The notes under the pieces are model-generated. The model saw only the letters and a program-made list of their open reading frames with translations. It was not told where the DNA came from and did not search any database. Positions 5,376 through 57,526 of a stretch of DNA of 64,000 bases are shown here, piece by piece. Source of the stretch: Oscillospiraceae bacterium (lineage in GTDB: Bacteria; Bacillota; Clostridia; Oscillospirales; UBA644); assembly GCA_902783255.1 (NCBI GenBank), contig CACZQB010000038.1:5458-69457 (forward strand), in the 5' to 3' direction. The position numbers were made by a program, and so were the translations under genes. Position 1 is the first letter of the stretch. Each line of letters begins with the position of its first letter.

Positions 5376-5415
5376 CCGGATCAACAACACACAACACACT
5401 GACGGCATCAGTTTT

Positions 5416-6702: not shown

Positions 6703-6730
6703 TTATCAGCGATAATTTCAGGAGCGGAAA

Positions 6731-38017: not shown

Positions 38018-38216
38018 ATGTTGATCATCCTTCCTTTTAAACCATTTAGTCATATTCCGTATCGACAATATTTACATTTGTTTTGACTGCCTTTTTTTCA
38101 GTTTACCACATTTCTTCCGTAAAGTCAATATAATTATGTGTAAATATCAAATTGTAATCAATGTTTGAAGTTTGATCTAACTCGTCAATATATTTACAAA
38201 ATGACTGTTTTTTTTA

Positions 38217-38245
38217 TTGACTTGAAAAATCGTAAATGATAAAAT
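38217..38245 (+). promoter_or_regulatory. Sigma-70-type promoter of the corrinoid uptake / B12 operon
   Basis: TTGACT (38217-38222), 17 nt, TAAAAT (38240-38245), preceded by TGa (extended -10). This leaves a leader of about 110 nt before the ATG at 38359. Confidence 0.6.
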
Positions 38246-38358
38246 ATCTCGCTGAGAATGGGTAGTTTCGGCAAAAATTTAAATTATATAGATTTAATGA
38301 CCTTTTTCGGTGTTGTTACTAAATTATTCAATAATATAAACATATTTGGAGGATTTTT

Positions 38359-39516
38359 ATGAAAAAAATCATTTGCCTTGCTCTTGCAGCCATAATGGTT
38401 CTTGCCATTGCTGCATGCGGAGAAAACGGTGCGAAGTCCGATCAGGAACTTGCCGACGAGGCAGCAAAACTTATCGATGCTATCTATGTTCAGGAAAGAA
38501 CTGATAAAACAGATGAGCAGTGCACAGCAGCAAAAGCTGCCTGGGATGCGCTTACGGATGCTCAGAAAGAGCTTGTAAGCGGCGAATACGCAGATCCGGA
38601 TTATTTCGGAAGAGATACGGGTGATGCTTCGGCTGATGATCCGCTCAATGCAGACGAGATAGGAAATAAAGAAATTCTTGTCGTAAGTTTCGGCACATCA
38701 TTCAACAACAGCCGCGCGACGGATATAAAAGGGATCGAAGATGCTGTTGCAAAAGCATTTCCGGACTGGTCTGTAAGACGCGCCTTCACGGCACAGATCA
38801 TTATCAACCATATCCAGGCGCGTGACGGCGAAAAAATAGACAACATGACCCAGGCTCTTGACCGTGCGGTCGCAAACGGAGTTGAAACTCTTGTTGTTCA
38901 GCCCACACATCTTATGCACGGTGCTGAATACGACGAACTTACAGGGGTACTCGATCAGTATAAAGACAAAATAGCCACCATAGTTGTTGCCGAACCTTTA
39001 CTCGGTGCGGTCGGTTCAGACGCTTCTGAAATAAATGAAGATAAAAAGAACGTGGCTGTCGCAATTGCCGATGCAGCAAGAAAAGACGGAAGTTTCACTA
39101 CTCTTGATGCCGTAGAGGAATCCGGTACTGCTTTTGTGTTTATGGGCCACGGCACATCACATACCGCCAAAATTACATATTCCCAGATGCAGGCTCAGAT
39201 GGATGAACTCGGATATAAGAACGTTTTTATAGGCACTGTTGAAGGCGAACCTGAAGAAACTTCATGTGAAGAGATCATAAATCGTGTTCATGAGGCGGGA
39301 TATAAAAATGTCGTTCTGCGTCCTCTCATGGTAGTTGCGGGAGATCACGCCAATAACGATATGGCAGGCGAAGACGAAGATTCATGGATAAGCATGTTCG
39401 CGGCCTCTGGTTATTTTGATAATCTGTCTACTCAGATTGCAGGCCTCGGCAGACTTACAGCTGTTCAGGAACAGTATATTGCCCATACTCAGGCTGCGAT
39501 CGACTCTATTGGATGA
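38359..39516 (+). CDS. cbiK: Lipoprotein-anchored (exported) CbiK-family class II chelatase homolog
   Basis: 385 aa. Signal peptide plus lipobox MKKIICLALAAIMVLAIAAC, a linker of about 100 aa, then a CbiK fold with VVQPTHLMHGAEY and FVFMGHGTSH His-containing blocks. GGAGGA RBS. Confidence 0.7.
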   Translation: MKKIICLALAAIMVLAIAACGENGAKSDQELADEAAKLIDAIYVQERTDKTDEQCTAAKAAWDALTDAQKELVSGEYADPDYFGRDTGDASADDPLNADEIGNKEILVVSFGTSFNNSRATDIKGIEDAVAKAFPDWSVRRAFTAQIIINHIQARDGEKIDNMTQALDRAVANGVETLVVQPTHLMHGAEYDELTGVLDQYKDKIATIVVAEPLLGAVGSDASEINEDKKNVAVAIADAARKDGSFTTLDAVEESGTAFVFMGHGTSHTAKITYSQMQAQMDELGYKNVFIGTVEGEPEETSCEEIINRVHEAGYKNVVLRPLMVVAGDHANNDMAGEDEDSWISMFAASGYFDNLSTQIAGLGRLTAVQEQYIAHTQAAIDSIG

Positions 39517-39531
39517 TCCGGGTAAATTCGA

Positions 39532-40299
39532 TTGAAAAAATTTCTTATTTTAATTATTCTGGCAGTGGCATTCGCTCTTTCGTCATGCAGCAATGCCGCA
39601 GATCAGACTGAGAATAAACCGCTTCTCAGGGATGGGGTTTACTCTGCGAAATTCACCACCGACGGCTCTATGTTTCATGTAAATGAAGCATACAAAGGCA
39701 GAGGAATACTGACCGTAAAAGACGGAACAATGACGATCCATATCACCATGCCTTCAAAAAATACCGTAAACCTTTTTGCCGGGAAAGCAGAGGATGCGCA
39801 GAAAAACGGAGCGCTCCTTATTGCCCCCACAGTCGATACTGTTACTTATGAAGACGGAATGCAGGAAGAAGTATTCGGTTTTGATCTTCCCGTCCCGTAT
39901 ATCGGCGAAGAATTTGACTGTGCTCTAGTAGGCACGAAGGGCAAATGGTACGATCATAAAGTTTCAGTCGATGATCCCGTGAGAATTATTGAAGACGGGG
40001 AGTATACCGTAAATGTTACACTGTCGGGAGGCGCAGGCAAAGCATCTGTAGATTCGCCCGCTAAACTTATTGCAGAAAACGGGGTATATACTGCCGAGCT
40101 TGTATGGAGCAGTCCCAATTACGAATATGTAGTTGTTGACGGAGTTCAGTATGACAGGCTCGACAGAGAGGGCAATTCCGCTTTTCTTATCCCGGTTCGC
40201 ATAGACGAGGAGATCAGGATCAGCGCTCTCACAACGGCAATGAGTACTCCTCACCTTATTGAATACACTCTGTTTTTTGACGGTGAAACGATAGAGTAA
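39532..40299 (+). CDS. Two-domain surface lipoprotein of unknown function (possible tetrapyrrole-binding beta-sandwich repeats)
   Basis: 255 aa with a TTG start and lipobox AFALSSC. There are two tandem domains of about 110 aa, each opening with DG.Y and ending in beta-strand-like ...V/FD. I recognise no confident family. Confidence 0.5.
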   Translation: MKKFLILIILAVAFALSSCSNAADQTENKPLLRDGVYSAKFTTDGSMFHVNEAYKGRGILTVKDGTMTIHITMPSKNTVNLFAGKAEDAQKNGALLIAPTVDTVTYEDGMQEEVFGFDLPVPYIGEEFDCALVGTKGKWYDHKVSVDDPVRIIEDGEYTVNVTLSGGAGKASVDSPAKLIAENGVYTAELVWSSPNYEYVVVDGVQYDRLDREGNSAFLIPVRIDEEIRISALTTAMSTPHLIEYTLFFDGETIE

Positions 40300-40302: not shown

Positions 40303-41457
40303 ATGAATAACAAAATGCGTACCGGATTATTGTCGGTTTTCATGATCATCGCCGTTGCGATACTCAGTTTATCCGGATGTAATACAGTTCATGCAAAAGA
40401 CGAAAAATCCGGGCAGATGCCGGCATTTCTGTACAGTATGCCGCTTGACTATGCCTCTCAGTTTTCCGTTGATTGTTACGAAAACGGATATAAACTGCTG
40501 TCTTTTGCGAACGGAGACCGTATTTTTATGGTTCCCGAAGGAGCGGATATTCCTTCGGGACTTGACGAAGGAACAAAAATACTGAAATGTCCGGTTAGCA
40601 GTATTTACCTTGCCGCCACATCGGCAATGAGTCTTTTTGATTCACTCGGAATACTTGACGTTATCAGGCTCTCAGGCACTCAGGCAGACGGCTGGTATAT
40701 CGACAACGCCAAAAAAGCAATGACAGAAGGGAAGATCGTATACGCAGGCAAATACAATCAGCCCGACTACGAGCTTATTACCTCCGAAAAATGTCCTCTG
40801 GCAGTCGAGTCGATGATGATAGGTCATGCATCCGATATAAAAGAGCAGCTTGAAAACCTCGGAATTATTGTTCTTACGGATCAGTCGAGCAATGAACCTC
40901 ATCCTCTCGGCCGCGCTGAATGGATAAAGCTTTACGGCGCGATATTCGATAAGGAAGATACAGCTGAGAACGCATTCGGTGAACAAAAAAAATACCTCGA
41001 TGATATTTCTATGAAGGAAACGACCGGTAAGACCGTTGCATTTTTTTATGTCAGCTCCTCCGGAAGAATCGTTGTAAGAAAAAGCGAGGACTATGTCAGC
41101 AAAATGATCTCTCTTGCGGGCGGCAGATATGTTTTTGCGGAAATTGGGGATAATACAACAAAAACATCTTCTGTTACCATCGATCCCGAGGCGTTTTACG
41201 CATCAGCGCATAATGCAGATATTCTGATATATAATTCAACAATAGGCAGCGAGATCAGGTCTCTTGATGAACTTATTGAAAAATGTGAGCTTCTTGCCGA
41301 TTTTGATGCCGTTAAAAACGGAAATGTATGGTGCACGCAGAAAAATATGTACCAGGAAACAATGTCGCTCGGTGCTATGATAAACAGTTTTTACGAAATA
41401 TTTTCTGATAATTCCGGAAATCTTGAAGAAGTACCTTATTTATTTAAATTAAAATAA
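40303..41457 (+). CDS. ABC substrate-binding lipoprotein, cluster A (BtuF/FecB/heme-siderophore-B12 type), copy 1
   Basis: 384 aa with lipobox LSLSGC and the blocks YASQFSVDCYENGYKLL and HPLGRAEWIKLYGAIF. Confidence 0.75.
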   Translation: MNNKMRTGLLSVFMIIAVAILSLSGCNTVHAKDEKSGQMPAFLYSMPLDYASQFSVDCYENGYKLLSFANGDRIFMVPEGADIPSGLDEGTKILKCPVSSIYLAATSAMSLFDSLGILDVIRLSGTQADGWYIDNAKKAMTEGKIVYAGKYNQPDYELITSEKCPLAVESMMIGHASDIKEQLENLGIIVLTDQSSNEPHPLGRAEWIKLYGAIFDKEDTAENAFGEQKKYLDDISMKETTGKTVAFFYVSSSGRIVVRKSEDYVSKMISLAGGRYVFAEIGDNTTKTSSVTIDPEAFYASAHNADILIYNSTIGSEIRSLDELIEKCELLADFDAVKNGNVWCTQKNMYQETMSLGAMINSFYEIFSDNSGNLEEVPYLFKLK

Positions 41458-41484: not shown

Positions 41485-42672
41485 ATGAAAAAATTCAATC
41501 TTAAAGCAATTTCAATGCTGCTTGCGGTTGTAATGCTTTTAACAGTATTTGCTGCTTGCTCAAACAATGATTCAAAACCCGAAAACAACGATAATGCAAC
41601 CGAACAGTCACAGCAGAATGAGCAGACCGAAGAAAACTATGACGGCAAACTCGTATTCGATCATTCAATGGAACTCAAGTATGCAAAATGCTTCTCCGTT
41701 GATTACTATAAGGGCGGATACAAGCTTATAAAACTTGTTGACGATTCCGCAATTCTCGTTGTTCCCGAAGGAATGAGCGTTCCGGCAGATAAACCTGAAA
41801 ACGCAGTAGTACTTCAGCAGCCCGTATCAAACATTCTTGTTTCATCCACACCTGTCACATCTCTTATAAATTCCATCGGCGCGCTTGATTCCATATCTCT
41901 TACAACATACGATGCCGATTCGTGGTATATTGACGATGTAAAACAGGCGATCCTCGACGGCAAAATCACCTATATCGGCGATTATAAAGCTCCGGACTAT
42001 GAAATGATCACTGCTGCAGGCACAACTTTCGCATTTTTCTCAACAATGCTCACAGACGATGTCAAAGAGCAGCTTCAGAATATAGGCGTAGACGTTATCC
42101 TTGACCAGTCTGCTCAGGAAGATCATCCCCTCGCAAGAGTTGAATGGGCAAAACTTTACGGCGCGATTTTCAATAAAGAGGATAATGCCGAAACTGTGTT
42201 CAATACCCAGGCAAACTATGTTGACGAGCTCTCAAAACTTGAAAAAACGGGCAAAACCGTCGCCATGTTCTATATAACGTCAAAAGGTGTTCTCTATGCA
42301 AGAAATGCGGATGACTACATGGCAAAAATGATAGCTCTTGCAGGTGGCGATTATGTTCTTTCAGATGTCGGAGTCGGTGAGACCGGAACCGTGAAAATGG
42401 AAATGGAAGCATTTTTCGACAAAGCAAAAGACGCCGACTATATAGTGTATATCTGGTCAATGGGCGGAAAACCCGAAACTCTTGCCGCATTTACCGAAAG
42501 AGCAGAGATCCTCGGTGATATGAAAGCAGTAAAAGAAGGAAATGTATGGTGCACAACACCCGATTATTTCCAGATTCAAAACACGATAGGCAGTATGATA
42601 AACGATATCAGACTTATGATGGATGCAGATGCTTCGACCGATAATCTGACCTATCTGTTCCGTCTTAAATAA
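41485..42672 (+). CDS. ABC substrate-binding lipoprotein, cluster A, copy 2 (paralog of 40303-41457)
   Basis: 395 aa with lipobox TVFAAC. Colinear with copy 1 (YAKCFSVDYYKGGYKLI, HPLARVEWAKLYGAIF, GNVWCT). Confidence 0.75.
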   Translation: MKKFNLKAISMLLAVVMLLTVFAACSNNDSKPENNDNATEQSQQNEQTEENYDGKLVFDHSMELKYAKCFSVDYYKGGYKLIKLVDDSAILVVPEGMSVPADKPENAVVLQQPVSNILVSSTPVTSLINSIGALDSISLTTYDADSWYIDDVKQAILDGKITYIGDYKAPDYEMITAAGTTFAFFSTMLTDDVKEQLQNIGVDVILDQSAQEDHPLARVEWAKLYGAIFNKEDNAETVFNTQANYVDELSKLEKTGKTVAMFYITSKGVLYARNADDYMAKMIALAGGDYVLSDVGVGETGTVKMEMEAFFDKAKDADYIVYIWSMGGKPETLAAFTERAEILGDMKAVKEGNVWCTTPDYFQIQNTIGSMINDIRLMMDADASTDNLTYLFRLK

Positions 42673-43712
42673 TGGGCACTCTCAATAAAAACAATAATAC
42701 GAATACCATGCGGTTCTGCATGGTATTCGTGTCATTTATTATTCTGTATATCATTGCAGTTTTCTGGAATATTATGAGCGGAAGCGTTAATATTTCGGTC
42801 TCTGAAATGGCAGATATCATCTTTAATGGCAACGCAACAAACTCTGTTGCTTACAACGTGATCTGGAAGATCCGTCTTCCGAGACTCATGCTTGCGTCTC
42901 TTCTTGGCGGAGCGCTTTCGCTTTCAGGTTTTCTTATTCAAACTTTTTTCAGAAATCCAATCGCAGGCCCGTTCGTTCTCGGTATATCATCGGGTGCAAA
43001 AATGTTCCTTGCCATCGTTACGATAGCAATGAACGGTTTTTTCAGCAGTATGCCGCTTTCTGTTACCGTTATTGCGTCTTTTGTAGGCTCACTGCTGTCA
43101 ATGCTGCTCGTTCTTCTCTTTACCGGCAGAGTAAAAAACATGTCAATGCTTCTTGTTATCGGTATTATGATAAGTTACATATGCTCCGCCGTAACCGACT
43201 TGCTGATAAACTTCGCGAATGAATCTGATATCGTAAATCTTACGCATTGGTCTCTCGGCAGCTTTTCCGCTGCGTCATGGCAGGATGTAAAAATATCCGC
43301 TTTTATAATCATTCCGTCGTTTATCGCTATTTTCTGTTTTTCAAAGCCGATGTTCGCATATTCTCTCGGCGAGGAATATGCTCAAAGTCTGGGACTAAAC
43401 GTAAAGCTTTTCAGAGCTTTTCTGGTTATCGCCACAGGCATTCTTTCAGCATGTGTCGTTTCGTTTGCAGGACCGATTTCTTTCGTCGGCATCGCGGTCC
43501 CTCATATAGCAAGAATGGTTCTTAAAACATCAAAGCCTATAATAATGATACCCGCAACGTTTTTGCTCGGCGCGTTTTTCTGCGTTATCTGCGATCTTGC
43601 CGCAAGAATGCTTTTTTCGCCTACGGAGCTTTCGATCAGCACCGTTACAAGCGTTATCGGGGCGCCGATAGTTATCTGGCTGATGATCTCAAGGAGAAAA
43701 AATGGAAACTGA
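42672..43712 (+). CDS. FecCD/BtuC family ABC permease
   Basis: 346 aa polytopic protein with the FecCD-type block RLPRLMLASLLGGALSLSGFLIQTFFRNPIAGPFVLGISSGA. Confidence 0.85.
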   Translation: MGTLNKNNNTNTMRFCMVFVSFIILYIIAVFWNIMSGSVNISVSEMADIIFNGNATNSVAYNVIWKIRLPRLMLASLLGGALSLSGFLIQTFFRNPIAGPFVLGISSGAKMFLAIVTIAMNGFFSSMPLSVTVIASFVGSLLSMLLVLLFTGRVKNMSMLLVIGIMISYICSAVTDLLINFANESDIVNLTHWSLGSFSAASWQDVKISAFIIIPSFIAIFCFSKPMFAYSLGEEYAQSLGLNVKLFRAFLVIATGILSACVVSFAGPISFVGIAVPHIARMVLKTSKPIIMIPATFLLGAFFCVICDLAARMLFSPTELSISTVTSVIGAPIVIWLMISRRKNGN

Positions 43713-44898
43713 AAAGGAAAACACACGACTGAAGGCTGATGCTTTGACTGAAAAAAATTACGATCAATCCGGCATTCCAAAACTTGAAATGAATTCCGCC
43801 ACCGTCGGATATAATGGCGCCCCTTTGATCTCCGATATCAATATTTCGGTAGAAAAAGGGGAGATAGTATCTCTGATAGGACCAAACGGAGCAGGCAAGT
43901 CGACAATTCTTAAAAGTATCACGCGCCATCTTGCAATGATTGCCGGCACAGTCTATATAGACGGCAAAAATATGCGTGTAATGAGCGGAAGAGAAACGGC
44001 TCTCAAAATGTCAGTCATGCTTACAGATCGGCTGAAGCCGGATCTTATGACTTGCAGGGAACTCGTATCCGCAGGGCGTTATCCGTACACGGGAGGATTC
44101 GGACTTCTGTCTCAGAAAGATAAGGAAATAATCGAAAGATCTCTCGCCCGTGTAAACGCATCGGATATTGCCGATAAAGAGATAACTGCAATAAGCGACG
44201 GTCAGCGCCAGCGCGTTTTGCTCGCAAGGGCGCTTTGTCAGGAACCGGAAATAATCGTTCTTGACGAGCCTACATCATATCTTGACATTCGAAATAAAAT
44301 AGAGCTTCTCGATATCTTATCAGAAATGGCAAAAAAAGAAAAAATAGCCGTTATTATGAGTCTGCATGAGATCGATCTCGCAGAAAGGATCTCCGATAAG
44401 ATCGTATGCGTGAAGGGCGATCGTATATATTCATACGGCACAGCGTCGGAAATATTTTCGGATACGAATATCGCGTCTCTTTACGATATAAAAAAAGGCC
44501 ACTTTAATGCTCTTTTAGGCAGTATAGAGCTCAAAAAACCTCAGGGCGAAATAAAATGCTTTGTCGTTGGCGGCAACGGCACAGGTATTCCGTTTTACCG
44601 AGCATTGCAAAAGAAAGGAACGGCTTTTGCGGCTGGAATTCTACAAAAAAACGATATCGACTCTGCTGTCGCTCTTGCTCTGGCGTCGGAAATAGTTTTT
44701 TCGGATGCATTCTGCCCCATTACGCCCGAACAGGTTTGCAGAGCAAAACAGCTTATCGATTCCGTTATATTTCTTGCGGACTGCGGATGTGAAACGGGAG
44801 AATACAACAAAGAAAATGCGGCACTTATCGAGTACGCAAAAAAAACGGGGAAACATATTCTGACATCTCCCAAAGAAATTGCGGAGGCTGGATTATGA
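43702..44898 (+). CDS. ABC ATPase (FecE/BtuD type) with a C-terminal extension of about 130 aa and unknown function
   Basis: Walker A GPNGAGKST, signature ISDGQRQRV, Walker B IIVLDEPTS. Residues from about 265 to 398 (from about nt 44494) form an extra domain containing VVGGNGTG. Confidence 0.8.
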   Translation: METEKENTRLKADALTEKNYDQSGIPKLEMNSATVGYNGAPLISDINISVEKGEIVSLIGPNGAGKSTILKSITRHLAMIAGTVYIDGKNMRVMSGRETALKMSVMLTDRLKPDLMTCRELVSAGRYPYTGGFGLLSQKDKEIIERSLARVNASDIADKEITAISDGQRQRVLLARALCQEPEIIVLDEPTSYLDIRNKIELLDILSEMAKKEKIAVIMSLHEIDLAERISDKIVCVKGDRIYSYGTASEIFSDTNIASLYDIKKGHFNALLGSIELKKPQGEIKCFVVGGNGTGIPFYRALQKKGTAFAAGILQKNDIDSAVALALASEIVFSDAFCPITPEQVCRAKQLIDSVIFLADCGCETGEYNKENAALIEYAKKTGKHILTSPKEIAEAGL

Positions 44899-46262
44899 CT
44901 CAACCCCGTGTGCTTATTGCCGGTACCTCAAGCTCAAGCGGAAAAACAACTGCAGTCTGTGCGCTCCTGTCTCTTCTGAAGCGCAGAAGAATATCAGTCA
45001 GATCCTTCAAATGCGGACCTGATTATATCGATCCGATGTTTCACAGATCCGTGATCGGCATAAAGTGCTCTAACCTTGATCCGTTTTTTTGTGATGATGA
45101 TCTTCTCAGATATCTTCTTTTTGAAAATGCGGCAGGTAATCTTGCCGTCATAGAAGGAGTTATGGGGTACTATGACGGAACGGGTGATAACGGCTCTGAC
45201 AACAGCACATACTCCGTCGCAATAAAAACGGATTCACCGGTTATTATTGTCGTGAACGCTAAGGGAGCTTCGTCTTCGCTTTTAGCTGTTGTCGAGGGAT
45301 TTCTTAACTATCTTCCGAACAGCAATATCCGAGGTGTTCTTTTCAACAGAATGTCCTTGATGAACTACAAATACGTATGTTCGCTTATGAAAATGCGCTT
45401 TCGTGATTCCGTAATTCCCGTAGGGTATATTCCCGAACTTCCCGATGAGTGCCTTTTCCCGTCAAGACACCTCGGTCTTGTAACCGCTGCCGAAATAACG
45501 GATTTGCAGAAAAAACTTGATAAGATAGCCGATATATGTGAAAATACCATAGACATAGACGCGGTTCTTTCCATTGCAGATAAAGCAGGAAGGCTCAACT
45601 GCACATCCCCGGCAGTTCCGGCGCACGAAAAGATCAATATTGCAGCGGCATTTGATTCTGCTTTTTGCTTTTATTACAGCGATAATTTTGATCTTCTGAA
45701 AAAAATGGGAGCGGAAATAACGTTTTTTTCACCGCTGAAAAACGAACCTGTTCCGCGGAATGCGGATGGACTCCTGCTGGGCGGCGGTTATCCGGAGCTT
45801 TATACCGATATCCTCGAAAAAAACGAAATATCCAAAAACAGCATTTTAAACAGTATTGAAAGCGGTATGCCTGCAATAGCCGAATGCGGCGGATTTCAGT
45901 ATCTCGGAAAGACTGTGGACGGTAAAAAAATGTGCGGGCTTTTTGACAGCGAAAGCTTTTCTGCAAACAAACTCGTCAGATTCGGCTATAATACCATAAC
46001 ATCCGAAAAAGACGGTATTTTCGGCAAGAAAGGTACCTCTTTCAAAGCACACGAATTTCATTACTGGGACAGCACTTTAAACGGAGACAGCTTTACTGCC
46101 GTAAAACCAAACGGCAAGAGCTGGAAATGCGCCTTTACCACAGATACGCTTTATGCCGGTTATCCTCATTTGTATCTTTGGTCAAACCTGCCGGCGGCAA
46201 ATAATTTTTACAATAAATGCCTGGAATACAAGGAGAGAAAAAATGATCATCAACGACCCTAA
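44895..46262 (+). CDS. cbiA: Cobyrinate a,c-diamide synthase
   Basis: 455 aa with GTSSSSGKTT and the glutamine amidotransferase block AECGGFQYLG. Confidence 0.9.
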   Translation: MTQPRVLIAGTSSSSGKTTAVCALLSLLKRRRISVRSFKCGPDYIDPMFHRSVIGIKCSNLDPFFCDDDLLRYLLFENAAGNLAVIEGVMGYYDGTGDNGSDNSTYSVAIKTDSPVIIVVNAKGASSSLLAVVEGFLNYLPNSNIRGVLFNRMSLMNYKYVCSLMKMRFRDSVIPVGYIPELPDECLFPSRHLGLVTAAEITDLQKKLDKIADICENTIDIDAVLSIADKAGRLNCTSPAVPAHEKINIAAAFDSAFCFYYSDNFDLLKKMGAEITFFSPLKNEPVPRNADGLLLGGGYPELYTDILEKNEISKNSILNSIESGMPAIAECGGFQYLGKTVDGKKMCGLFDSESFSANKLVRFGYNTITSEKDGIFGKKGTSFKAHEFHYWDSTLNGDSFTAVKPNGKSWKCAFTTDTLYAGYPHLYLWSNLPAANNFYNKCLEYKERKNDHQRP

Positions 46263-46860
46263 CGATATAGAAAAACGAAGCATGGAAATAATTGAGAGCG
46301 AGCTTAAAATTGACGTTCCCGACGAAAATAAGGCAGTAGTTAAAAGGGTTATACACTGCACGGCTGATTTCGACTACGCTGTCAACCTGCAGTTTTCCGA
46401 AAATGCCGTAAAGAAAGCTCTTGAGGCCCTGAAAAACGGCTGCACTATAGTCACGGATACCCAAATGGCAAAAGCAGGCATAAATAAGCCTGCCGCAGAG
46501 AAACTCGGATGCAGCGTTTTATGCTATATGAGTGATCCCGATGTCGCCGCCGCCGCAAAAGAGCATGGAGGAACGCGTGCGGCAGCTTCTATGGAAAAGG
46601 CCGCATCACTCGGCAGCAATGTTATTTTTGCGATCGGAAATGCGCCTACTGCATTGCTTAAACTTAAAGAGCTTGCAGATGAAGGCAGAATAGCCCCGAA
46701 ACTTATTATCGGCGTTCCCGTAGGCTTCGTAAACATTACAGAATCAAAAGAGGCGATCATGACGACTGATATCCCGTATATCGTTGCAAAGGGCCGCAAG
46801 GGCGGTTCAAATGTTGCCGCGGCGATCGTCAACGCACTGATGTATCAGCTTACAAGATAA
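46243..46860 (+). CDS. cbiC: Cobalt-precorrin-8 methylmutase
   Basis: VIHCTADFDYA block. I moved the start to MIINDPNDIE (46243), which has AAGGAGAG upstream. The track ORF starts at 46153, inside cbiA. Confidence 0.85.
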   Translation: MIINDPNDIEKRSMEIIESELKIDVPDENKAVVKRVIHCTADFDYAVNLQFSENAVKKALEALKNGCTIVTDTQMAKAGINKPAAEKLGCSVLCYMSDPDVAAAAKEHGGTRAAASMEKAASLGSNVIFAIGNAPTALLKLKELADEGRIAPKLIIGVPVGFVNITESKEAIMTTDIPYIVAKGRKGGSNVAAAIVNALMYQLTR

Positions 46861-47999
46861 TGGACAGTTTTATTACAAAAGACGGAAAACGTCTTCGCAG
46901 AGGATATACTACCGGTTCGTGCGCCGCCGCTGCCGCAAAAGCCGCAGCGATCATGCTCTTTGAAAACAGGAAACTCGATAAAGTATATCTTTTAACGCCG
47001 AACGGAACAGGTCTGTATATCGCTGTTCACGATATCGTCAGAGATAAAAATACCGTTTCCTGTTCAGTCGTAAAAGACAGCGGAGACGACCCCGATATTA
47101 CGAACGGAATAAAAGTTTTCGCAAAAGTCGAAAAAAAAGACGGAATAAATGAGATCACCGTCTGCGGCGGCGAAGGCGTCGGGGTAGTAACGAAGCCGGG
47201 CCTCGACCAGCCTGTAGGCAATCATGCGATCAATTCAACACCGAGAAGAATGATCAAGCAAGAACTTTTAAAAGTCTGTGAAGATAACGGATATAACGGC
47301 GGACTGACTGTAACGATATCTGTTCCCGACGGAGTAAAGATCGCTGAAAAAACATTTAATCCGAGGCTAGGCATAATCGGCGGTATCTCTGTTCTCGGAA
47401 CGACCGGTATCGTTGAACCCATGAGCGACGACGCCGTAGTCGAAACTATACGTACCGAGCTTTCTCTTCGCAGAGCGGAGGGAAAGACGTCGGTATTGTT
47501 TGCGCCGGGTAATTACGCGATGGATTTTATAAGGGACGAGCTTCATTTGAACGCCGAAATAGCAGTAACAACGTCAAATTTTATCGGTGATGCTCTTACT
47601 CTTGCCTCGGAAGAGGGGTTTGCATACGCACTTCTTGTGGGACATGTCGGAAAACTTATAAAGCTTGCCGGCGGATTATTCAATACTCACTCACGATGGG
47701 GCGACTGCCGTGCGGAAATATTTGCCGCCCACGCAGGTATGAACGGCGCAGATGCGGAAACCGTAAAACAGATCATGCAGAGCGCTATGACGGACGATAT
47801 TATCTCGATCACCGAAAAAGCGGGTATTTACGGAAATGTCATGCGAAGTGTCATGGCAAAAATAGATGACAACATATCGCACCGCCAGCTTGGTAAAATG
47901 AAAACAGGTGTTATCATGTTTTCAAAAATATACAGTTCACTCGGCACAACGCCTGATGCTGAAGAAATTCTCGAAATTATTCGAAAGGAATATACATAA
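46860..47999 (+). CDS. cbiD: Cobalt-precorrin-5B C1-methyltransferase
   Basis: 379 aa with the LRRGYTTGSCAAAAAKAA N-terminus typical of CbiD. Confidence 0.9.
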   Translation: MDSFITKDGKRLRRGYTTGSCAAAAAKAAAIMLFENRKLDKVYLLTPNGTGLYIAVHDIVRDKNTVSCSVVKDSGDDPDITNGIKVFAKVEKKDGINEITVCGGEGVGVVTKPGLDQPVGNHAINSTPRRMIKQELLKVCEDNGYNGGLTVTISVPDGVKIAEKTFNPRLGIIGGISVLGTTGIVEPMSDDAVVETIRTELSLRRAEGKTSVLFAPGNYAMDFIRDELHLNAEIAVTTSNFIGDALTLASEEGFAYALLVGHVGKLIKLAGGLFNTHSRWGDCRAEIFAAHAGMNGADAETVKQIMQSAMTDDIISITEKAGIYGNVMRSVMAKIDDNISHRQLGKMKTGVIMFSKIYSSLGTTPDAEEILEIIRKEYT

Positions 48000-48754
48000 T
48001 GGTACATATTGTCGGGGCGGGCTGCGGCGCGCCGGATCTGATTACTCTTCGCGGAAAAAAACATCTCGAAAATGCCGATGTTATCATATACGCGGGATCG
48101 CTTGTCAACGCCGAACTCCTTTCTTTTGCAAAAAAAGATTGTGATATTTACGACAGCGCAAAAATGACCCTTGAAGAAATAATAAATGTGATCGTTTCCG
48201 CCGAAAGCGAAAACAAAACGACCGTGCGTCTTCATACGGGAGACCCGTCTCTTTACGGCGCAATAGGCGAGCAGATCCGCGAATTCAGCATACACGGTAT
48301 AGAATACGATATCACACCCGGTGTAAGTTCTTTTTCAGGCGCTGCGTCCTCGCTGAAAACCGAGTATACGCTTCCCGATGTATCGCAGACAGTTATTATC
48401 ACGCGAGCATCAGGCAATACGTCGGTCCCCGATTCGGAAAATCTCGTTTCACTTGCGAAACACCGCGCAACAATGGTCCTCTTTCTAAGTACCGGTCTTC
48501 TCGATAAGGTGACAAAAGAGCTTATCGAAGGCGGATATTCTCCCGATACACCTGCCGCCATAGTGTATAAAGCAACATGGGCGGACGAAAAGGTGTTTCG
48601 ATGCACAGTTTCAACGCTTAAAAAAACAGCAGAAGAAAACAAAATAACAAAAACCGCGCTTATAACAGTAGGCGATTTTCTGACAAGTGATTTTTCAAGA
48701 TCACATCTTTATGATCCTGATTTTTCAACAGAATTCCGTGAGGCTAAAAAGTGA
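47999..48754 (+). CDS. cbiF: Cobalt-precorrin-4 C11-methyltransferase
   Basis: 251 aa with VGAGCGAPDLITLRG...VIIYAGSLVN. Confidence 0.85.
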   Translation: MVHIVGAGCGAPDLITLRGKKHLENADVIIYAGSLVNAELLSFAKKDCDIYDSAKMTLEEIINVIVSAESENKTTVRLHTGDPSLYGAIGEQIREFSIHGIEYDITPGVSSFSGAASSLKTEYTLPDVSQTVIITRASGNTSVPDSENLVSLAKHRATMVLFLSTGLLDKVTKELIEGGYSPDTPAAIVYKATWADEKVFRCTVSTLKKTAEENKITKTALITVGDFLTSDFSRSHLYDPDFSTEFREAKK

Positions 48755-49767
48755 ATGTAAGTATTTTCTGCTATTCCGAATCAGGTTCTCATATCGCAAA
48801 GGATCTTTGCGATATGTTTGGTCTTTCATATAAATCAGTTCACTCAATAGAAAAATTCGCGTCAAAATACGGATTTGTTTCGCACAAAAGTATTTCTTCG
48901 GATATTGAACCGTTGTTTAACGCCGGCGGCGCACTTATATTTATAGGCGCATGCGGGATTGCGGTGAGAACAATAGCCCCTTATGTGAAAAGCAAAACGA
49001 CCGATCCTGCTGTTATAGTTATAGACGACCAGAAAAAATTCATCATTCCGATTCTGTCGGGGCATATCGGCGGCGCAAATGAACTGACAAGAAAACTCGC
49101 TGAAAAAACAGGTTCTCTTGCCGTGATCACCACCGCTACGGACGGAGCGAGCAGATTTTCCTGCGATACCTGGGCTTTTACGCATAACTGCGCTCTCTCT
49201 TCAATGAAAACAGCAAAAGATGTGTCAGCGGCAATTCTTGAAAACGATATTCCCGTTTCCTCGGAATTTCTGCTGCCGAAATCTCTTCCGTCAGGGCTTT
49301 TCCCAGGAAATAACGGTGAAACAGGTATTTATATCGGTATAAAAAAGGCGTCTCCGTATTCAAATACATTACGTATTATACCCAGAGTCCTTACAGTCGG
49401 TATAGGCTGCAGAAAAGGCGCAAAAAAAGAAGATATATCATGTGCAGTCAGAGCAGTTTTTGAGAAAGCAGGATTGGATTTAAAAGCAGTAAAGAGTATT
49501 GCTTCCATAGATGTGAAGAAAAATGAAGAGGGTCTTCTCTTTTTTGCGGATGAATTGAATATTCCCGCGGTTTTTTTCAGCGCCGATGAACTAAACTCGG
49601 TCAAAGGCGATTTTGAAGATTCGGAATTCGTAAAAAAAACTGTCGGTACGGGAAATGTCTGCGAACGTTCCGCAGCGCTTGCCGGAGGCAGAATCATAAT
49701 CAAAAAAACTGTTGAAAACAGCGTTACGATTGCAGTTGCGCAGAGCGATTGGGAGGTCATATTTTGA
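48751..49767 (+). CDS. cbiG: Cobalt-precorrin-5A hydrolase
   Basis: 338 aa with CbiG N-, middle and C-domain architecture, in the conserved position between cbiF and cbiH. Confidence 0.8.
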   Translation: MNVSIFCYSESGSHIAKDLCDMFGLSYKSVHSIEKFASKYGFVSHKSISSDIEPLFNAGGALIFIGACGIAVRTIAPYVKSKTTDPAVIVIDDQKKFIIPILSGHIGGANELTRKLAEKTGSLAVITTATDGASRFSCDTWAFTHNCALSSMKTAKDVSAAILENDIPVSSEFLLPKSLPSGLFPGNNGETGIYIGIKKASPYSNTLRIIPRVLTVGIGCRKGAKKEDISCAVRAVFEKAGLDLKAVKSIASIDVKKNEEGLLFFADELNIPAVFFSADELNSVKGDFEDSEFVKKTVGTGNVCERSAALAGGRIIIKKTVENSVTIAVAQSDWEVIF

Positions 49768-50495
49768 AGAAAATATATGTAGTCGGCATAGGAGCCGGTA
49801 ATTATGACGGAATGACGGTCGGCGCCGTCAGAACACTCGAAAAAGTCGATGTAATAGTGGGATACACAGTATATATCGACCTTATAAAACCTTTTTTTGC
49901 AACAAAAACGTTTATATCCACACCTATGATGAAAGAGACAGAGAGGTGCAGGATCGCGCTTGAAAAAGCGGCGGAAGGAAAGACCGTTGCCATGATATGC
50001 TCCGGCGATGCGGGTATTTACGGCATGGCGTCTCCGATCCTCGAACTGGCGGAGGAATACGGAGTAGAAACCGAAATTATTGCAGGGGTAACTGCAGCTT
50101 CTTCCGGCGCAGCGCTTTTGGGTTCTCCCATAACATGCGATTTTGCCGTTATCAGCCTTTCTGATCTTCTCACTCCCTACGAAACAATAATAAACAGAGT
50201 TGAAAACATTGCAAAAGCAGACATGTGCATGGTTATTTATAATCCGTCAAGCCGCAAACGTTCGGATTATATGCAGCGCGTGTGCGAGATAATTCTTAAA
50301 TATCGTTCTTCAAACACTGTATGCGGCATCTGCCGCAATATAGGCAGAGAGGGACAGGATTACGAAATAACTACTCTGTCTGAACTGACAACAAAGGAAA
50401 TTGATATGTTCACGACTGTATTTATAGGCAATTCAACAACAAAAGTCGTTAACGGCAGAATGGTTACGCCTCGGGGATACAGTTATGAAAAATAA
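49764..50495 (+). CDS. cbiH: Cobalt-factor III / precorrin-3B C17-methyltransferase
   Basis: KKIYVVGIGAGNYDGMT...VIVGYTVYIDL. The likely start is the TTG at 49764, 7 nt after GGGAGG. The track start is 49749. Confidence 0.85.
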   Translation: MKKIYVVGIGAGNYDGMTVGAVRTLEKVDVIVGYTVYIDLIKPFFATKTFISTPMMKETERCRIALEKAAEGKTVAMICSGDAGIYGMASPILELAEEYGVETEIIAGVTAASSGAALLGSPITCDFAVISLSDLLTPYETIINRVENIAKADMCMVIYNPSSRKRSDYMQRVCEIILKYRSSNTVCGICRNIGREGQDYEITTLSELTTKEIDMFTTVFIGNSTTKVVNGRMVTPRGYSYEK

Positions 50496-52446
50496 GATCT
50501 GTGTATTTGCAGGCACTACAGAGGGCAGAAGAATAGCTGAGATTTTAAACGGGGCGGCTGATATTACCGTATGCGTTGCAACGGAATACGGCGAAGTACT
50601 GCTTGACCATATAAACGGAATAACCGTTCATACGGGAAGACTCGACGAGGCTGAAATGGAAATGTTTTTTAAAAACAACGATTTCGAACTCATTATCGAC
50701 GCCACTCACCCGTATGCGGTAATTGCAACAAATAATATCCGCCTTGCCGCAGAAAAATGCGGCGTCAGACTTATGCGCATTTTGCGCAGTCCCGAAAATC
50801 ATGAAGCCAAGGCAGTTTATGTATCGTCAGTTACGGAGGCAAGAGATTATCTTTTAAACAGAGAGGGCAATATCCTTCTTACAACAGGTTCAAAAGAACT
50901 CTCTTTTTATGTCGGGCTCGATATGCAAAAAGTCTGGGCGCGCGTCTTGCCGTCCCATTCTTCACTTGATCTGTGTGAAAAAGCCGGCATTCCTTCATCG
51001 CATATCATAGCGGCTCAGGGACCTTTTTCGTATGATATAAATATAGCGCAGCTTAGAATGATAAATGCCGAATATCTTGTTACAAAAGCATCCGGAACGA
51101 GCGGAGGATATGAGGAAAAAATAAAGGCAGCACTTGATTTCGGGGCAGTTCCCGTTATTATCGGAGAACCGCCGCAGGATTTCGGGTACACTCTTGATGA
51201 GGCGATCGAAGAGCTTGAAAAAAAATACAATATTCAAAAAAGAGTTATTAACATAATCGGCATGGGACCGGGCAGCGAAAATCTTCTTACGGTTGAGGCA
51301 AAAAACGCATTGAGCGAATGCGATGCGATAATAGGGGCACAATCGGTCGTGAACGGAATATCTTTAAGAAAGCCGGTCTTTTTTGAGTTTTTGCCCGAAA
51401 AAGTCATGGCTGTTTTAGCAAACAATCCCTCTCTCCGTAAAATTGCCGTTATTATGCGAGGCGATACGGGTTTTTTCAGCGGAACAAAAAAAATGACAGA
51501 TGCTTTCCGTAACGAATGCGTCCGTATATTCCCGGGCATTTCGTCTGTTTCCGTCTTTGCTGCGAAACTTGCCATAAACTGGGATGACGCCGCTCTTGTG
51601 AGCATGCACGGACGTTATCACAATATCGTTCATACAGTCCGAGAAAACAAAAAAACGGTCGTTCTTGCTGGAGGAAGCAATTCTGCGGACGTAATATTGA
51701 AAAAACTGTCCGGCTATGGCTTCAATTCTCTGAATGCGGCGGTAGGCGAAAAGCTTACATACGAAGATGAAAAAATATCTGTCGGCACTGTGGGCGAACT
51801 GAAAGACAGAAAATATGACGATTTGTCTCTTGTATATATTGAAAATCCCGAACCGCAAAATATAATGCGGATAGGAATTGACGACTCTGAATTCATTCGC
51901 GGCGATGTTCCTATGACAAAATCCAATGTGCGCGCCGTTTCGGTCGCCGAGCTCTCGCTTGCGTCAGATTCCGTTGTATGGGATGTCGGGGCGGGAACCG
52001 GATCGGTTTCCGTTGAATGTGCTCTTTGCGCGTTTGACGGAACGGTTTATGCCGTTGAAAAAGAAGATGACGCCGTAAATCTCATCAGTCAGAACAAAAT
52101 AAAATTCTTTGCCGACAATATCGAAATAATAAAAGGAAAAGCGCCCGATGTCCTTGCAGGTCTGCCGTCACCTACGCATGTTTTTATCGGCGGCAGCGGC
52201 GGAACACTTTGCGAAACCATAAAAACCGTTCTCCTGAAAAATAAAGATGCGAAAATAGTCATCAATACCGTTACACTTGAATCGTATCATGAAGCATATG
52301 AATGTGCTGAAAAGTTCGGATTCAGAGATTTCAGATGTATATCGGTCAATATTTCCCGCAGCCGGAAGATTGACAGATACAATATGATGTGCGCACAGAA
52401 TCCCGTAACGGTTTTTGTAATGCAGGGAGGAAAGAACTTTGGTTAA
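50485..52446 (+). CDS. cbiJ-cbiET: Triple fusion: cobalt-precorrin-6A reductase (CbiJ), precorrin-6B C5,15-methyltransferase (CbiE) and the decarboxylating C12-methyltransferase (CbiT)
   Basis: 653 aa. Residues 1 to about 250 are CbiJ-like (KICVFAGTTEGR). Residues about 252-460 are CbiE-like (VINIIGMGPGS). From about 463 onward it is CbiT-like (GDVPMTKSNVRAV...WDVGAGTGSVS). Confidence 0.8.
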   Translation: MKNKICVFAGTTEGRRIAEILNGAADITVCVATEYGEVLLDHINGITVHTGRLDEAEMEMFFKNNDFELIIDATHPYAVIATNNIRLAAEKCGVRLMRILRSPENHEAKAVYVSSVTEARDYLLNREGNILLTTGSKELSFYVGLDMQKVWARVLPSHSSLDLCEKAGIPSSHIIAAQGPFSYDINIAQLRMINAEYLVTKASGTSGGYEEKIKAALDFGAVPVIIGEPPQDFGYTLDEAIEELEKKYNIQKRVINIIGMGPGSENLLTVEAKNALSECDAIIGAQSVVNGISLRKPVFFEFLPEKVMAVLANNPSLRKIAVIMRGDTGFFSGTKKMTDAFRNECVRIFPGISSVSVFAAKLAINWDDAALVSMHGRYHNIVHTVRENKKTVVLAGGSNSADVILKKLSGYGFNSLNAAVGEKLTYEDEKISVGTVGELKDRKYDDLSLVYIENPEPQNIMRIGIDDSEFIRGDVPMTKSNVRAVSVAELSLASDSVVWDVGAGTGSVSVECALCAFDGTVYAVEKEDDAVNLISQNKIKFFADNIEIIKGKAPDVLAGLPSPTHVFIGGSGGTLCETIKTVLLKNKDAKIVINTVTLESYHEAYECAEKFGFRDFRCISVNISRSRKIDRYNMMCAQNPVTVFVMQGGKNFG

Positions 52447-53413
52447 ACTGCTTATTCTTCAAACGGCGGCAATCATAGTGGGATTTATAATCGATTTTTT
52501 TGTCGGAGACCCTTATTCCATCCCTCATCCTGTCGTCTATATAGGCAAATGGATTTCTTTTTTTGATAAAAAATTTCGTCGCGGAGAACCGAAAAGCGAT
52601 TTCCGATACGGCATCGTTACGGTTTTACTTGTAACCGCAATATCAACGGTAATTCCCACAGCAGTTCTGTTAGCGGCATGGGTCATTCATCCCGTTTTGT
52701 ATTTTGTGATCAACTGTATAATGTGCTGGCAGCTCCTCGCAGCAAGACAACTTGTAAAAGAAAGCATGAAGGTTTGCGGCGAACTGAAAAATGGCGATAC
52801 CGAAGCGGCGAGAAAAGCTGTCTCATATATTGTCGGAAGAGATACCGATGTTCTTGATAAAAACGGCATTTGCAGGGCGGCGGTTGAAACGGTTGCCGAA
52901 AATACATCGGACGGCGTAACAGCGCCACTTATCTGGATATTCCTTTTCGGCGCAGTCGGCGGATTTTTTTACAAATCCGTCAATACCATGGACTCTATGA
53001 TAGGTTATAAAAACGAAAAATATCTTTATTTCGGCAGGGCTGCGGCAAAAACCGACGATTTCTGCAATTTTATTCCTTCAAGGATATCTGCTTTTCTTAT
53101 GATTTTCGCATGTCCGTTTTGCAAACTTGATATGAAAAACGCATACAGGATTTTCCGTCGCGACAGAATGAAGCATGCAAGCCCCAATTCTGCACAGACC
53201 GAGTCCGTTTGTGCCGGCGCCCTCGGTGTCCGTTTGGCAGGAGATGCGGTTTACGGCGGGGTAGTGCATAAAAAAGAGTATATAGGCGATTTTTTACGTG
53301 AAATAGAACCGGACGACATAAAAAAAACAGGCAGTCTTATGTATGCGGCGTCTTTTATCATGCTTCTTGTCGGTGTAATTCTGAGAACGGCGGTGATCCT
53401 GATTTGCTTATAA
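52439..53413 (+). CDS. cbiB: Adenosylcobinamide-phosphate synthase
   Basis: 324 aa membrane protein with a TTG start after GGGAGGAAAG. Shows the CbiB/CobD pattern FFVGDPYSIPHPV. Confidence 0.85.
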   Translation: MVKLLILQTAAIIVGFIIDFFVGDPYSIPHPVVYIGKWISFFDKKFRRGEPKSDFRYGIVTVLLVTAISTVIPTAVLLAAWVIHPVLYFVINCIMCWQLLAARQLVKESMKVCGELKNGDTEAARKAVSYIVGRDTDVLDKNGICRAAVETVAENTSDGVTAPLIWIFLFGAVGGFFYKSVNTMDSMIGYKNEKYLYFGRAAAKTDDFCNFIPSRISAFLMIFACPFCKLDMKNAYRIFRRDRMKHASPNSAQTESVCAGALGVRLAGDAVYGGVVHKKEYIGDFLREIEPDDIKKTGSLMYAASFIMLLVGVILRTAVILICL

Positions 53414-54444
53414 ACAGATCAAATCCTCACGGAGGGGATATTTACAACAACAGAGTGTTATATGATTTTTCATCAAATCTCAATCCCGCAGGTATGCCTG
53501 ATGCCGTAAAAAAAGCGGTCGCGGAATCGGCAGAACTCAGTTTGCGCTATCCCGATGCGTTTTGCCACGAACTCAGGAAAAAAATCTCTGAGTCGGAAAA
53601 AATACCGTATGAACGTATCATATGCGGCAACGGCGCCGCAGAGCTTATCTATTCGTATGCGTATTCTTTAAACAAAAATAAGCCTGCGCTGATAATCTCG
53701 CCTACATTTTGCGAATATGAAAACGCTCTCAGAGCAGCCGGTATCGAAACAAAACATCTGATCCTTTCGGAAGATAACGGATTTTGCCTGACCGAAGAGC
53801 TTATACCGGATGATCTTTCGGAATATTGCTCCGTTTTTGTCTGTTCTCCCAATAACCCGACGGGAATGACGGTAAAGAACGAAATACTCGTTAAACTTTG
53901 CAATTTATCAACCCGTGTTTTTGCGGACCTTTGTTTTCTTGATCTCTCAGACTGCCCGGATATATACGATATTACGGGGCTGACCGAAAAATATTCCGGA
54001 CTTACCGTTCTGAAAGCTTTCACGAAAAACTATTCAATGGCAGGTATAAGGCTTGGTTATGCTATGTGTTCAGACGGTGCTTTCCTTGAAAAAATGTCTG
54101 AAAAAACACAGTGCTGGAATGTTTCCGAAACAGCGCAGCAGGCAGGTGTCGCGGCGCTTGACTGTGTCGAATGGCTTAACTCTTCCGTGAAAATGATAAA
54201 AGAGGAAAGAAAGCGTGTTTTTGAAGCAGTTTCATCAGTCGGAATAAAAGTGTTCCGGGGTAGTGCCAATTTTCTTCTGCTTCATTCCGAACTCGATCTT
54301 AAAACACTGCTCCTGAAAAAGGGAATACTTATACGTGACTGTTCCAATTATATCGGTCTGTCAAAAGGATATTACCGCATAGCGATAAGAAAGAAAGAAG
54401 AAAACGATATACTTATATCTGCTCTGAAAGAGGTCGTCGAATGA
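53404..54444 (+). CDS. cobD: L-threonine-O-3-phosphate decarboxylase (class I/II aminotransferase fold)
   Basis: 346 aa with NPHGGD near the N-terminus, SPNNPTG, and [14 protein letters not shown] (PLP lysine region). Confidence 0.8.
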
Positions 54445-55898
54445 AAAAAGCACAACCCATTATGATACAGGGAACAATGTCCAATGCCGGCAAAAGTCTC
54501 ATCTGCGCTGCGCTATGCCGTATTTTTAACCAGGACGGATACCGCGTCGCGCCGTTTAAATCTCAGAATATGGCGCTGAATTCCTTTATTACAGACGAAG
54601 GACTTGAAATGGGCCGCGCTCAGGTCGTTCAGGCTGAAGCTGCCGGTATCAAACCGTCCGTTCTTATGAACCCGATTCTGCTCAAGCCAACGACCGACGT
54701 CGGTTCTCAGGTCATTGTCAACGGTGAAGTCCGCGGCAATATGAAGGCGTCCGATTATTTCAGGTATAAAAAACAGCTTATACCCGATATAATGAATGCA
54801 TACTGCAAACTTGAAGCTGAAAACGATATTATCGTTATAGAAGGGGCCGGAAGTCCTGCCGAGATAAATCTCAAGACTGACGACATAGTCAACATGGGTA
54901 TGGCAAAAATGGCAAAAGCTCCGGTTCTTCTTGTGGGAGATATCGACAGAGGAGGCGTTTTTGCTCAACTTTACGGAACTGTTTCCCTGCTCGATAAAGA
55001 TGAAAGAGATATGATCAAAGCAACCGTGATCAACAAGTTCAGGGGCGACAAAACGATCCTTGCTCCGGGTCTTGATATGCTCTACGATCTCGTTAAAATT
55101 CCGTGCGCAGGCGTAGTGCCGTATGTGCATGTTGATATAGACGATGAAGACAGCCTCAGCGAACGCCTTTCTGCGGGAATGAGAAAAGAAATCGATATAG
55201 CGGTCGTTCTTCTTCCGAGAATATCGAATTTTACCGATTTTTCGCCTTTTTCGCGGTTTTCAGGCGTGTCTCTCAGATATGTTAAAAATCTTTTCGAATT
55301 AGGTTCTCCCGATATGATCATCATTCCGGGAACAAAATCAACGATGTCCGATCTGAAATGGATGAGACAAAACGGCATGGAGGCTGAGATACTGAAAAAA
55401 GCATCCCGTGGTACTCCGGTTTTCGGTATCTGCGGCGGGCTTCAGATGCTCGGAAGAAAAATATCGGATCCGTTCAATACCGAGGGAGGCGGAGAGATAA
55501 ACGGAATGTCTCTTCTCGATATCGAAACCGTATTTGCAAAGCAAAAAACAAGAACTCAGACAGACGGTGTGTTTGAAGGAGTAAAAGGCATCTTCGGCTC
55601 GCTGAACGGACTGCATTTTCGCGGATACGAAATTCATATGGGGCAAAGCACGAATGCATCTGCCGTTATTCAGAACGGCAATGTATACGGCAGTTATATT
55701 CACGGTATTTTTGACGAAAACGATATAGCTGAATCAATAGTCAGAGCGCTTTACAAAAACAGGGGCATCGAATTTAATGAAAACGCTGTTTTTGACATCC
55801 GTTCATATCGCGAATCACAGTATGATATCCTTGCGTCTGCAGTCCGCGAATCAATGGATATGGATCTTATATACAGAATTCTGGAGGAAGGTATATGA
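54441..55898 (+). CDS. cobQ: Cobyric acid synthase
   Basis: 485 aa with GTMSNAGKS and the GATase block [11 protein letters not shown]. Confidence 0.9.
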
Positions 55899-57525: not shown

Positions 57526-57526
57526 A

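Follow-up and report, generated by a model that had tools for sequence, protein, structure and literature searches.

The lipoprotein gene and its surface anchoring

We focus here on a gene located in a 64,000-nucleotide stretch of contig CACZQB010000038.1 (assembly GCA_902783255.1) from an Oscillospiraceae bacterium, which we call the window. This gene encodes a lipoprotein made of two tandem domains, and its features are the following.

39532..40299, + strand: two-domain lipoprotein gene; 255-residue open reading frame with a TTG start and two tandem divergent NEAT-fold domains
39532..39588, + strand: signal peptide and lipobox (residues 1-19, LSSC, ending on Cys19), read from the sequence; Cys19 is nearly invariant
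39628..39984, + strand: domain 1 (about residues 33-151), delimited by DSSP on the predicted model; lip S46-M47-F48, beta8 W139-Y140
39988..40287, + strand: domain 2 (about residues 153-252); Gly-rich lip GGxG...SP, beta7-beta8 hairpin A236-M237-S238-x-P240-H241-x-x-x-Y245, sub-threshold Pfam NEAT match over residues 154-194

The protein begins with MKKFLILIILAVAFALSSC, which is a lipoprotein signal, and Cys19 is conserved in at least 90% of the sequences in an alignment of 43 diverse homologues. The automated gene calls of close relatives begin 10-11 codons downstream and give products of 244-245 residues from which the signal peptide would be lost; the TTG start is the better call because homologues retain an N-terminus composed of MKK, a hydrophobic segment and the Cys. 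More than 8,000 proteins match the product in a database clustered at 90%, so that this is not a chance open reading frame. A preliminary description of this DNA had proposed the 255-residue frame, its TTG start and its lipobox, and all three are real, the frame having been reconfirmed. The product is a lipid-anchored, extracytoplasmic surface protein.

Two highly diverged copies of the NEAT fold

The same description had recognized two tandem domains, and the sequences it quoted are present as written. Compared by hhalign, the two are homologues (probability 97%, E 5e-11) and represent highly diverged copies of one fold. The AlphaFold2 model, for which the 43-sequence alignment served as input, contains two all-beta domains, at about residues 35-151 and 156-250, and has a mean predicted local distance difference test score of 90.5 and a predicted template modelling (TM) score of 0.72. 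Its best Foldseek matches in the PDB are the NEAT-NEAT bidomains IsdH-N2N3 and IsdB (E 3e-6 to 9e-5, probability 1.0), and the single NEAT domains IsdX1, Hbp2-N2, IsdH-N3, IsdA and IsdB-N2 are matched with target-normalised TM scores of 0.52-0.66. The model thus displays the eight-stranded immunoglobulin-like beta-sandwich that characterizes NEAT domains (PF05031). The corresponding sequence signal is found at the level of the family: 32 of the 43 members match Pfam NEAT at E<=0.01, the best of them at 2.8e-11, and the window protein itself scores below threshold (19.1 bits for a cut-off of 32.8, E 0.0019). Sequence searches of the PDB with the protein and with a 31-sequence profile (HMMER) gave nothing meaningful and no NEAT domain, and hhalign against a small NEAT profile of 3 sequences (IsdC, IsdX2-N5 and 3SIK) gave weak local matches, at 19-44%.

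The motifs by which haem-binding NEAT domains are recognized are not present in either domain. The YxxxY haem-iron motif of beta8 is replaced by W139-Y140-D-H-K-V in domain 1 and by H241-L-I-E-Y245 (HxxxY) in domain 2. Likewise, there is no 3-10 helix lip with SxxxxY: the lip of domain 1 reads S46-M47-F48-H49-V-N and forms a short helical turn, and that of domain 2 is Gly-rich (GGxGKAS..SP) and devoid of helix. By its fold and its family-level sequence signal the protein belongs to the NEAT superfamily, but it does not pass the motif tests for haem-binding NEAT domains. The preliminary description had sensed a resemblance to NEAT domains, had remarked that the canonical YxxxY was missing, and had advised a structure prediction followed by a Foldseek search; this search puts NEAT domains first, and both remarks proved to be accurate.

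A few positions of the two domains are almost invariant. In domain 1 (259 instances), these are M47 (98%) and F48 (99%) on the lip loop, and W139 (96%) and Y140 (91%), where beta8 begins. In domain 2 (207 instances), these are G167 (100%), M237 (99%), H241 (94%) and Y245 (99%). As the NEAT topology puts the lip and beta8 around the ligand, these positions would line a pocket, and the conserved candidates for pocket residues are M47 and Y140 in domain 1, and M237, H241 and Y245 in domain 2.

A conserved cassette connected to cobamide biosynthesis

The lipoprotein gene is the second gene of a transport cassette that leads into a cobamide biosynthesis operon, all on the same strand.

38217..38245, + strand: best promoter-like site upstream of the cassette (TTGACT-17-TAAAAT with TG); a match in a consensus scan, not proof of a promoter
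38359..39516, + strand: exported CbiK-like class II chelatase lipoprotein; lipobox AIAAC, N-terminal extension of ~80 residues (Pfam CbiK 9e-70)
40303..41457, + strand: substrate-binding lipoprotein 1 (Peripla_BP_2, IsdE/Lmo2184-like; Pfam 8.6e-35)
41485..42672, + strand: substrate-binding lipoprotein 2 (Peripla_BP_2; Pfam 6e-23), 42% identical to binding protein 1
42672..43712, + strand: FecCD-type permease (Pfam FecCD 2.8e-81)
43702..44898, + strand: ATP-binding cassette (ABC) ATPase with a C-terminal MJ0874-type domain (Pfam ABC_tran 1e-29)
44895..55898, + strand: contiguous cobamide biosynthesis genes, cbiA, cbiC, cbiD, methylase, cbiG, methylase, cbiJ-methylase fusion, cbiB, cobD and cbiP (Pfam)
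56407..58818, + strand: cobT, cobU and cobS, for nucleotide-loop assembly (Pfam)

We fetched 80 loci carrying a homologue, and the order of the cassette is essentially invariant among them: exported CbiK, NEAT-like protein, IsdE-like binding protein, FecCD permease and ATPase. All 80 loci encode the NEAT-like protein, 78 encode the binding protein, 76 the ATPase, 74 the permease and 73 CbiK, and the missing genes mostly correspond to contig ends. Even members that are only 40% identical keep this context, with a CbiK that bears a Sec or lipoprotein signal. About 50 of the 80 loci lead directly into cbi/cob genes. The neighbours are those given in the preliminary description, namely a CbiK with a lipoprotein signal upstream and two Peripla_BP_2 binding proteins downstream; the link to corrinoids that it suspected, and for which it advised looking for co-occurrence with B12 loci, turns out to be stronger than it had seen, given the presence of the cassette in essentially all 80 loci, of a riboswitch in most of them, of cbi/cob genes next to about 50, and of gene fusions.

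Some features of the cassette deserve mention in their own right. The binding proteins are in tandem here and in single copy in most related loci, and the two of them (40303-41457 and 41485-42672) could correspond to two ligand specificities. The permease probably starts ~16 codons downstream of its annotated start, the call in a 90%-identical relative being of 330 residues. A 16-pair inverted repeat at 42697-42732, just past the stop of binding protein 2, overlaps this annotated start; it may be an intercistronic stem-loop setting the ratio of binding protein to membrane components. The last ~130 residues of the ATPase (within 43702-44898) form a PF27219 domain with several Cys, an assignment taken from its listing on ATPase orthologues, and this domain is lacking in some loci. 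One locus (L070, 4094-5865) contains, beside the main cassette, a second and far more divergent pair of CbiK-like and NEAT-like genes (33% and 29% identity), which suggests that there are paralogous cassettes. In the biosynthesis operon, 50485-52446 encodes a 653-residue protein in which CbiJ is fused to a CbiE-like tetrapyrrole methylase that may also include CbiT. A scan of the contiguous genes of the operon (44895-55898 and 56407-58818) revealed no cytoplasmic cbiK and no cbiL, and the genes for these steps must therefore lie elsewhere.

Control by cobalamin riboswitches in relatives

The expression of the cassette appears to be connected to the B12 status of the cell in most relatives. Rfam detects a Cobalamin riboswitch directly upstream of the exported cbiK in six of the seven loci tested. 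A search for the B12 box, validated on these seven loci, places one 160-560 nt upstream of the cassette in 58 of the 66 loci that could be evaluated, 13 others ending too early upstream. Locus L087 is a case in which the cassette, although inside a cbi operon, has a riboswitch and a terminator of its own. Judging from these sequences, a cobalamin riboswitch would turn the cassette off in most relatives, in which it is found at or within cobamide biosynthesis operons.

A further 7 of the 66 loci all belong to the clade of the window, and they share a conserved leader that resembles a diverged cobalamin riboswitch and is followed by a terminator; its Rfam Cobalamin score is sub-threshold (16.7 bits for a threshold of 31.5, E 0.05). 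This leader, typified by L010 8463-8653 and also seen in L001, L005, L008, L009, L012 and L016, differs in its B12 box (AGTCAGTyAACTGCC), and it may represent a variant class of aptamer or have a different ligand specificity.

A widespread modular family

The family is large. When clustered at 50% identity it comprises at least 2,214 groups, and its loci number at least 589 among species-representative genomes, mainly those of rumen and gut Oscillospiraceae, Lachnospiraceae (among which Blautia, Butyrivibrio, Acetatifactor and Fusicatenibacter) and Anaerovoracaceae. The protein had been singled out as the best candidate in the window for an undescribed component, and we found indeed no characterized member and no paper describing the family, but NCBI already names some homologues 'iron transporter', a label that is probably misleading.

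Among 150 representatives, domains 1 and 2 act as independent modules. Some proteins contain only domain 1, many of them being probably fragments, and others accumulate up to nine modules; one multi-module member of 1,965 residues is found in the same cassette context. The modules are also fused to the other products of the cassette. Fusions with the Peripla_BP_2 binding protein comprise [domain 1-domain 2]-binding protein and multi-module proteins that end in domain 2-binding protein, the binding-protein part following domain 2 in nearly all cases, except for three that are domain 1-binding protein. Those with CbiK comprise CbiK-domain 1, domain 1-CbiK and CbiK-domain 1-domain 2, and CbiK adjoins domain 1 in every one of them. 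The order within fusions therefore parallels the order of the genes in the window.

Such an architecture bears on the possibility that the domains do not bind any ligand and are rather a surface Ig-like scaffold or adhesin, either joining CbiK and the binding protein or attaching to the cell wall. The lower Foldseek matches do include Ig-like adhesin and glycan-binding modules, and the canonical haem motifs of NEAT domains are missing. We find this explanation very improbable: the top matches are specifically NEAT at a probability of 1.0, the near-invariant Met, Tyr and His fall on the lip and beta8, where NEAT domains have their pocket, and modules that are repeated up to nine times before a binding-protein domain are reminiscent of the multi-NEAT haemophores.

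The exported chelatase and the question of cobalt

The constant partner of the NEAT-like protein is the exported CbiK. Its PDB matches are the CbiK of Salmonella enterica (1e-34), FetB/IhtB of Porphyromonas gingivalis (1.5e-33) and the periplasmic CbiK of Desulfovibrio vulgaris (1e-26), so that it is as close to the latter two as to the Salmonella enzyme. Residues ~21-103 (38419-38667) form a conserved helical N-terminal extension (..LIDAIYVQE..AAKAAWDALTD.QKE..PDYFGRDTGDAS.DDPLN), which is also present in a distant locus (L059) and has no Pfam match. We considered that the exported CbiK might be the chelatase of the biosynthetic pathway and rejected it: the protein always has a Sec or lipoprotein signal, and in L059 a signal-less cytoplasmic cbiK adjoins the exported one, meaning that these are two distinct paralogues. 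In Desulfovibrio, a single B12 element governs both cbiK-cbiL and btuCDF (PMC545781).

The exported CbiK retains both of its catalytic, metal-binding His positions (PTHLMHG and FMGHGTSH), and this raises the possibility that the cassette captures cobalt by means of an extracellular metallated tetrapyrrole. CbiK would insert Co(II) into an environmental porphyrin or into a released sirohydrochlorin-type intermediate, the NEAT-like domains would carry the product to the importer, and the cassette would be a cobalt supply line replacing cbiMNQO. An apparently active extracellular chelatase is better explained in this way than by corrinoid capture. FetB, its surface homologue, metallates a porphyrin with Co(II) and Mn(II) and with neither Fe nor Ni, and it does not dechelate haemin (PMC13065792). 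In addition, CbiK is found fused or next to domain 1, the cassette lies at the head of cbi operons or within them and is predicted to be repressed by B12 as cobalt transporters are, and no CbiM-like frame was found in the window or the 80 loci by an N-terminal motif expression, which is a crude test. On the other hand, no tetrapyrrole exporter or source is evident, an imported cobalt porphyrin would require a dechelation step, and the cytoplasmic cbiK paralogues that coexist in some genomes imply that the exported enzyme cannot simply be equated with the chelatase of the pathway. We thus hold cobalt capture to be unlikely. Somewhat less likely still is a complete 'cobaltophore' route, in which surface CbiK would metallate the tetrapyrrole, NEAT-like proteins would carry it, and import would feed cobalt or cobalt-sirohydrochlorin into B12 synthesis; if true, such a route is absent from all current models of cobalt homeostasis.

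The binding proteins and the question of haem

The profile of the binding proteins finds Lmo2184 (3e-9) and IsdE (2e-3), both of them partners of NEAT proteins, as its best PDB matches, and NCBIfam gives only weak IsdE matches. The two receptors, of BtuF/FecB type according to the preliminary description, are present, and they are not recognisably BtuF-like.

This likeness to haem receptors, together with the NEAT fold, would suit a supply of iron or haem of the Isd/Hbp or Iht kind, in which the domains would bind haem and the exported CbiK would act on haem or porphyrin. Haem binding has been reported for FetB/IhtB and for the periplasmic CbiK of D. vulgaris, both of them CbiK homologues, the 'iron transporter' label of the homologues goes in the same direction, and the Met/Tyr and His candidate pocket residues suit haem iron. 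We nevertheless consider haem uptake improbable. The cobalamin riboswitch (58 canonical and 7 diverged of 66) and the embedding in cbi/cob genes have no haem-supply rationale, YxxxY is missing, the axial ligand His229 of IsdE has no conserved counterpart in the binding proteins, genes for haem-degrading enzymes and sortases are not among the recurrent neighbours of the 80 loci, and haemin is left intact by FetB (PMC13065792). The iht operon itself is unresponsive to iron or haem (PMC12094164).

A proposed relay for a cobalt tetrapyrrole

Four observations argue for a NEAT-type relay that delivers a tetrapyrrole to an ABC importer: the fold, the anchoring at the surface, a partner resembling IsdE, and the fusions. 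The riboswitch and the cbi/cob neighbourhood argue for a cargo that serves B12 rather than iron supply. We therefore favour the reading that the protein is a surface receptor relaying a cobalt tetrapyrrole, probably a corrinoid (cobamide or cobinamide), to the ABC importer, with a probability of about one half; corrinoid capture is the most economical reading, with similar odds.

According to this reading, the protein would act like the NEAT relay of the Isd system with a cobalt tetrapyrrole, most probably a corrinoid, as its cargo. Each domain would hold the macrocycle in a pocket between the lip loop and the beta7-beta8 hairpin, and Met/Tyr in domain 1 and His/Met/Tyr in domain 2 would be the candidate axial or stacking contacts. 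The ligand would travel from the CbiK-like protein to domain 1, then to domain 2, the binding protein and finally the importer.

Several points weigh against corrinoid capture. Met/Tyr ligation is classic haem chemistry, as seen in IsdB-N2, and to our knowledge all solved relatives of the NEAT fold bind haem. A corrinoid is also bulkier than haem. The forced global alignment to the NEAT profile has a low confidence, and the register of Y140, H241 and Y245 relative to YxxxY is uncertain by ~2 residues. As far as can be judged from comparison with the PDB, the binding proteins resemble haem binders, IsdE and Lmo2184, and their profile has no match to BtuF at E<=1. The exported chelatase, which appears to be catalytically intact, does not seem to be accounted for by the simple capture of a corrinoid. 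Finally, the leader of the window (38069-38358) does not contain a riboswitch according to Rfam, run on the whole window and on the leader with the gathering threshold and at E<=1, nor does it contain the variant leader motif of the sister lineages. This leader is AT-rich, with one good promoter-like site, and a 90%-identical relative (L082) likewise has neither the canonical riboswitch nor the variant leader.

Connectivity with known relay systems

The closest parallels are the Isd system of Staphylococcus aureus (IsdH/IsdB/IsdA/IsdC to IsdE-IsdF), Hbp2 of Listeria monocytogenes, which delivers to Lmo2184, and IsdX1/X2 of Bacillus anthracis. All share with the family the beta-sandwich fold, its tandem or multi-copy arrangement and a surface location. 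The Isd/Hbp loci and the cassette also have in common an IsdE-like class III binding protein, a FecCD permease and an ATPase, and the Met on the lip and Tyr on beta8 of domain 1 recall IsdB-N2. However, the family has neither YxxxY nor SxxxxY, it is anchored as a lipoprotein or by a C-terminal membrane helix instead of by sortase, its locus has no haem oxygenase gene, and its constant partner is an exported CbiK. The Isd/Hbp systems are under iron control, whereas the cassette is associated with a B12 riboswitch in relatives and with cbi/cob neighbours, Fur boxes not having been searched.

The Iht system of P. gingivalis (IhtA, IhtB/FetB, IhtCDE) and the periplasmic CbiK of D. vulgaris resemble the cassette in another way, as they too combine an exported CbiK homologue with a class III binding protein, a permease and an ATPase; the CbiK with intact metal-binding His and the co-encoded ABC importer that mark such cassettes are both found here. 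These systems are, however, Gram-negative; Iht relies on a TonB-dependent receptor and the other has no receptor at the surface, a place taken here by a tandem NEAT-like lipoprotein.

The logic of the cassette is also that of the Bacteroides relay of BtuG, BtuH, BtuJ and BtuK with BtuB and BtuFCD, which is likewise riboswitch-controlled, places accessory surface lipoproteins ahead of the transporter, and serves the gut niche. That relay is located at the outer membrane and its cobamide binding has been demonstrated experimentally, whereas it is only predicted here. The preliminary description had guessed that the protein would be unrelated in sequence to BtuG and BtuH, and indeed no similarity to BtuG, BtuH or BtuJ was found with Pfam or among the top 50 Foldseek matches in the PDB.

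NEAT domains without YxxxY but with a conserved Met were already known as the 'clostridial group', for which an alternate role in anaerobes was raised (Honsa et al. 2014, PMC4143258). Like the present family, this group and Cht of Clostridium perfringens (PMC5026354) have this combination, with up to seven copies per protein. They are, however, mostly LPXTG-anchored proteins from Clostridium sensu stricto, with haem as the only ligand discussed, whereas we describe lipoproteins linked to B12. The words cobalamin, B12 and chelatase are not found in Honsa et al. 2014, and our literature searches linking NEAT with cobamide or B12 found nothing.

A 2026 review describes extracellular cobamide capture in Gram-positives as 'entirely uncharacterized' (PMC13616437). 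On the basis of our analysis, the family is a strong candidate for the capture of corrinoids or other cobalt tetrapyrroles by gut and rumen Clostridia. It is a concrete and widespread one, with hundreds of species of Oscillospiraceae, Lachnospiraceae and Anaerovoracaceae, and it comes with residues to mutate. Should a corrinoid or some other cobalt tetrapyrrole prove to be the ligand, then the NEAT fold, which textbooks present as a module of pathogens for haem only, would acquire a second class of cofactor and a role in commensals. There is also a practical side to this, as the exported CbiK paralogue can pass as a biosynthetic cobaltochelatase when B12 producers and auxotrophs are predicted from genomes.

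Other features of the window

Upstream of the cassette, on the opposite strand, lie a DUF6847 gene and the gene of an MscS-type channel. A predicted lipoprotein of 475 residues is encoded at 34979-36406 (- strand) and has no Pfam match at E<=1e-5. The beginning of the window (58-10352) is occupied by a capsule/exopolysaccharide locus, unrelated to the cassette, which comprises CpsB, Wzz, a tyrosine-kinase-like ATPase, LytR-CpsA-Psr, a sugar transferase and epimerases.

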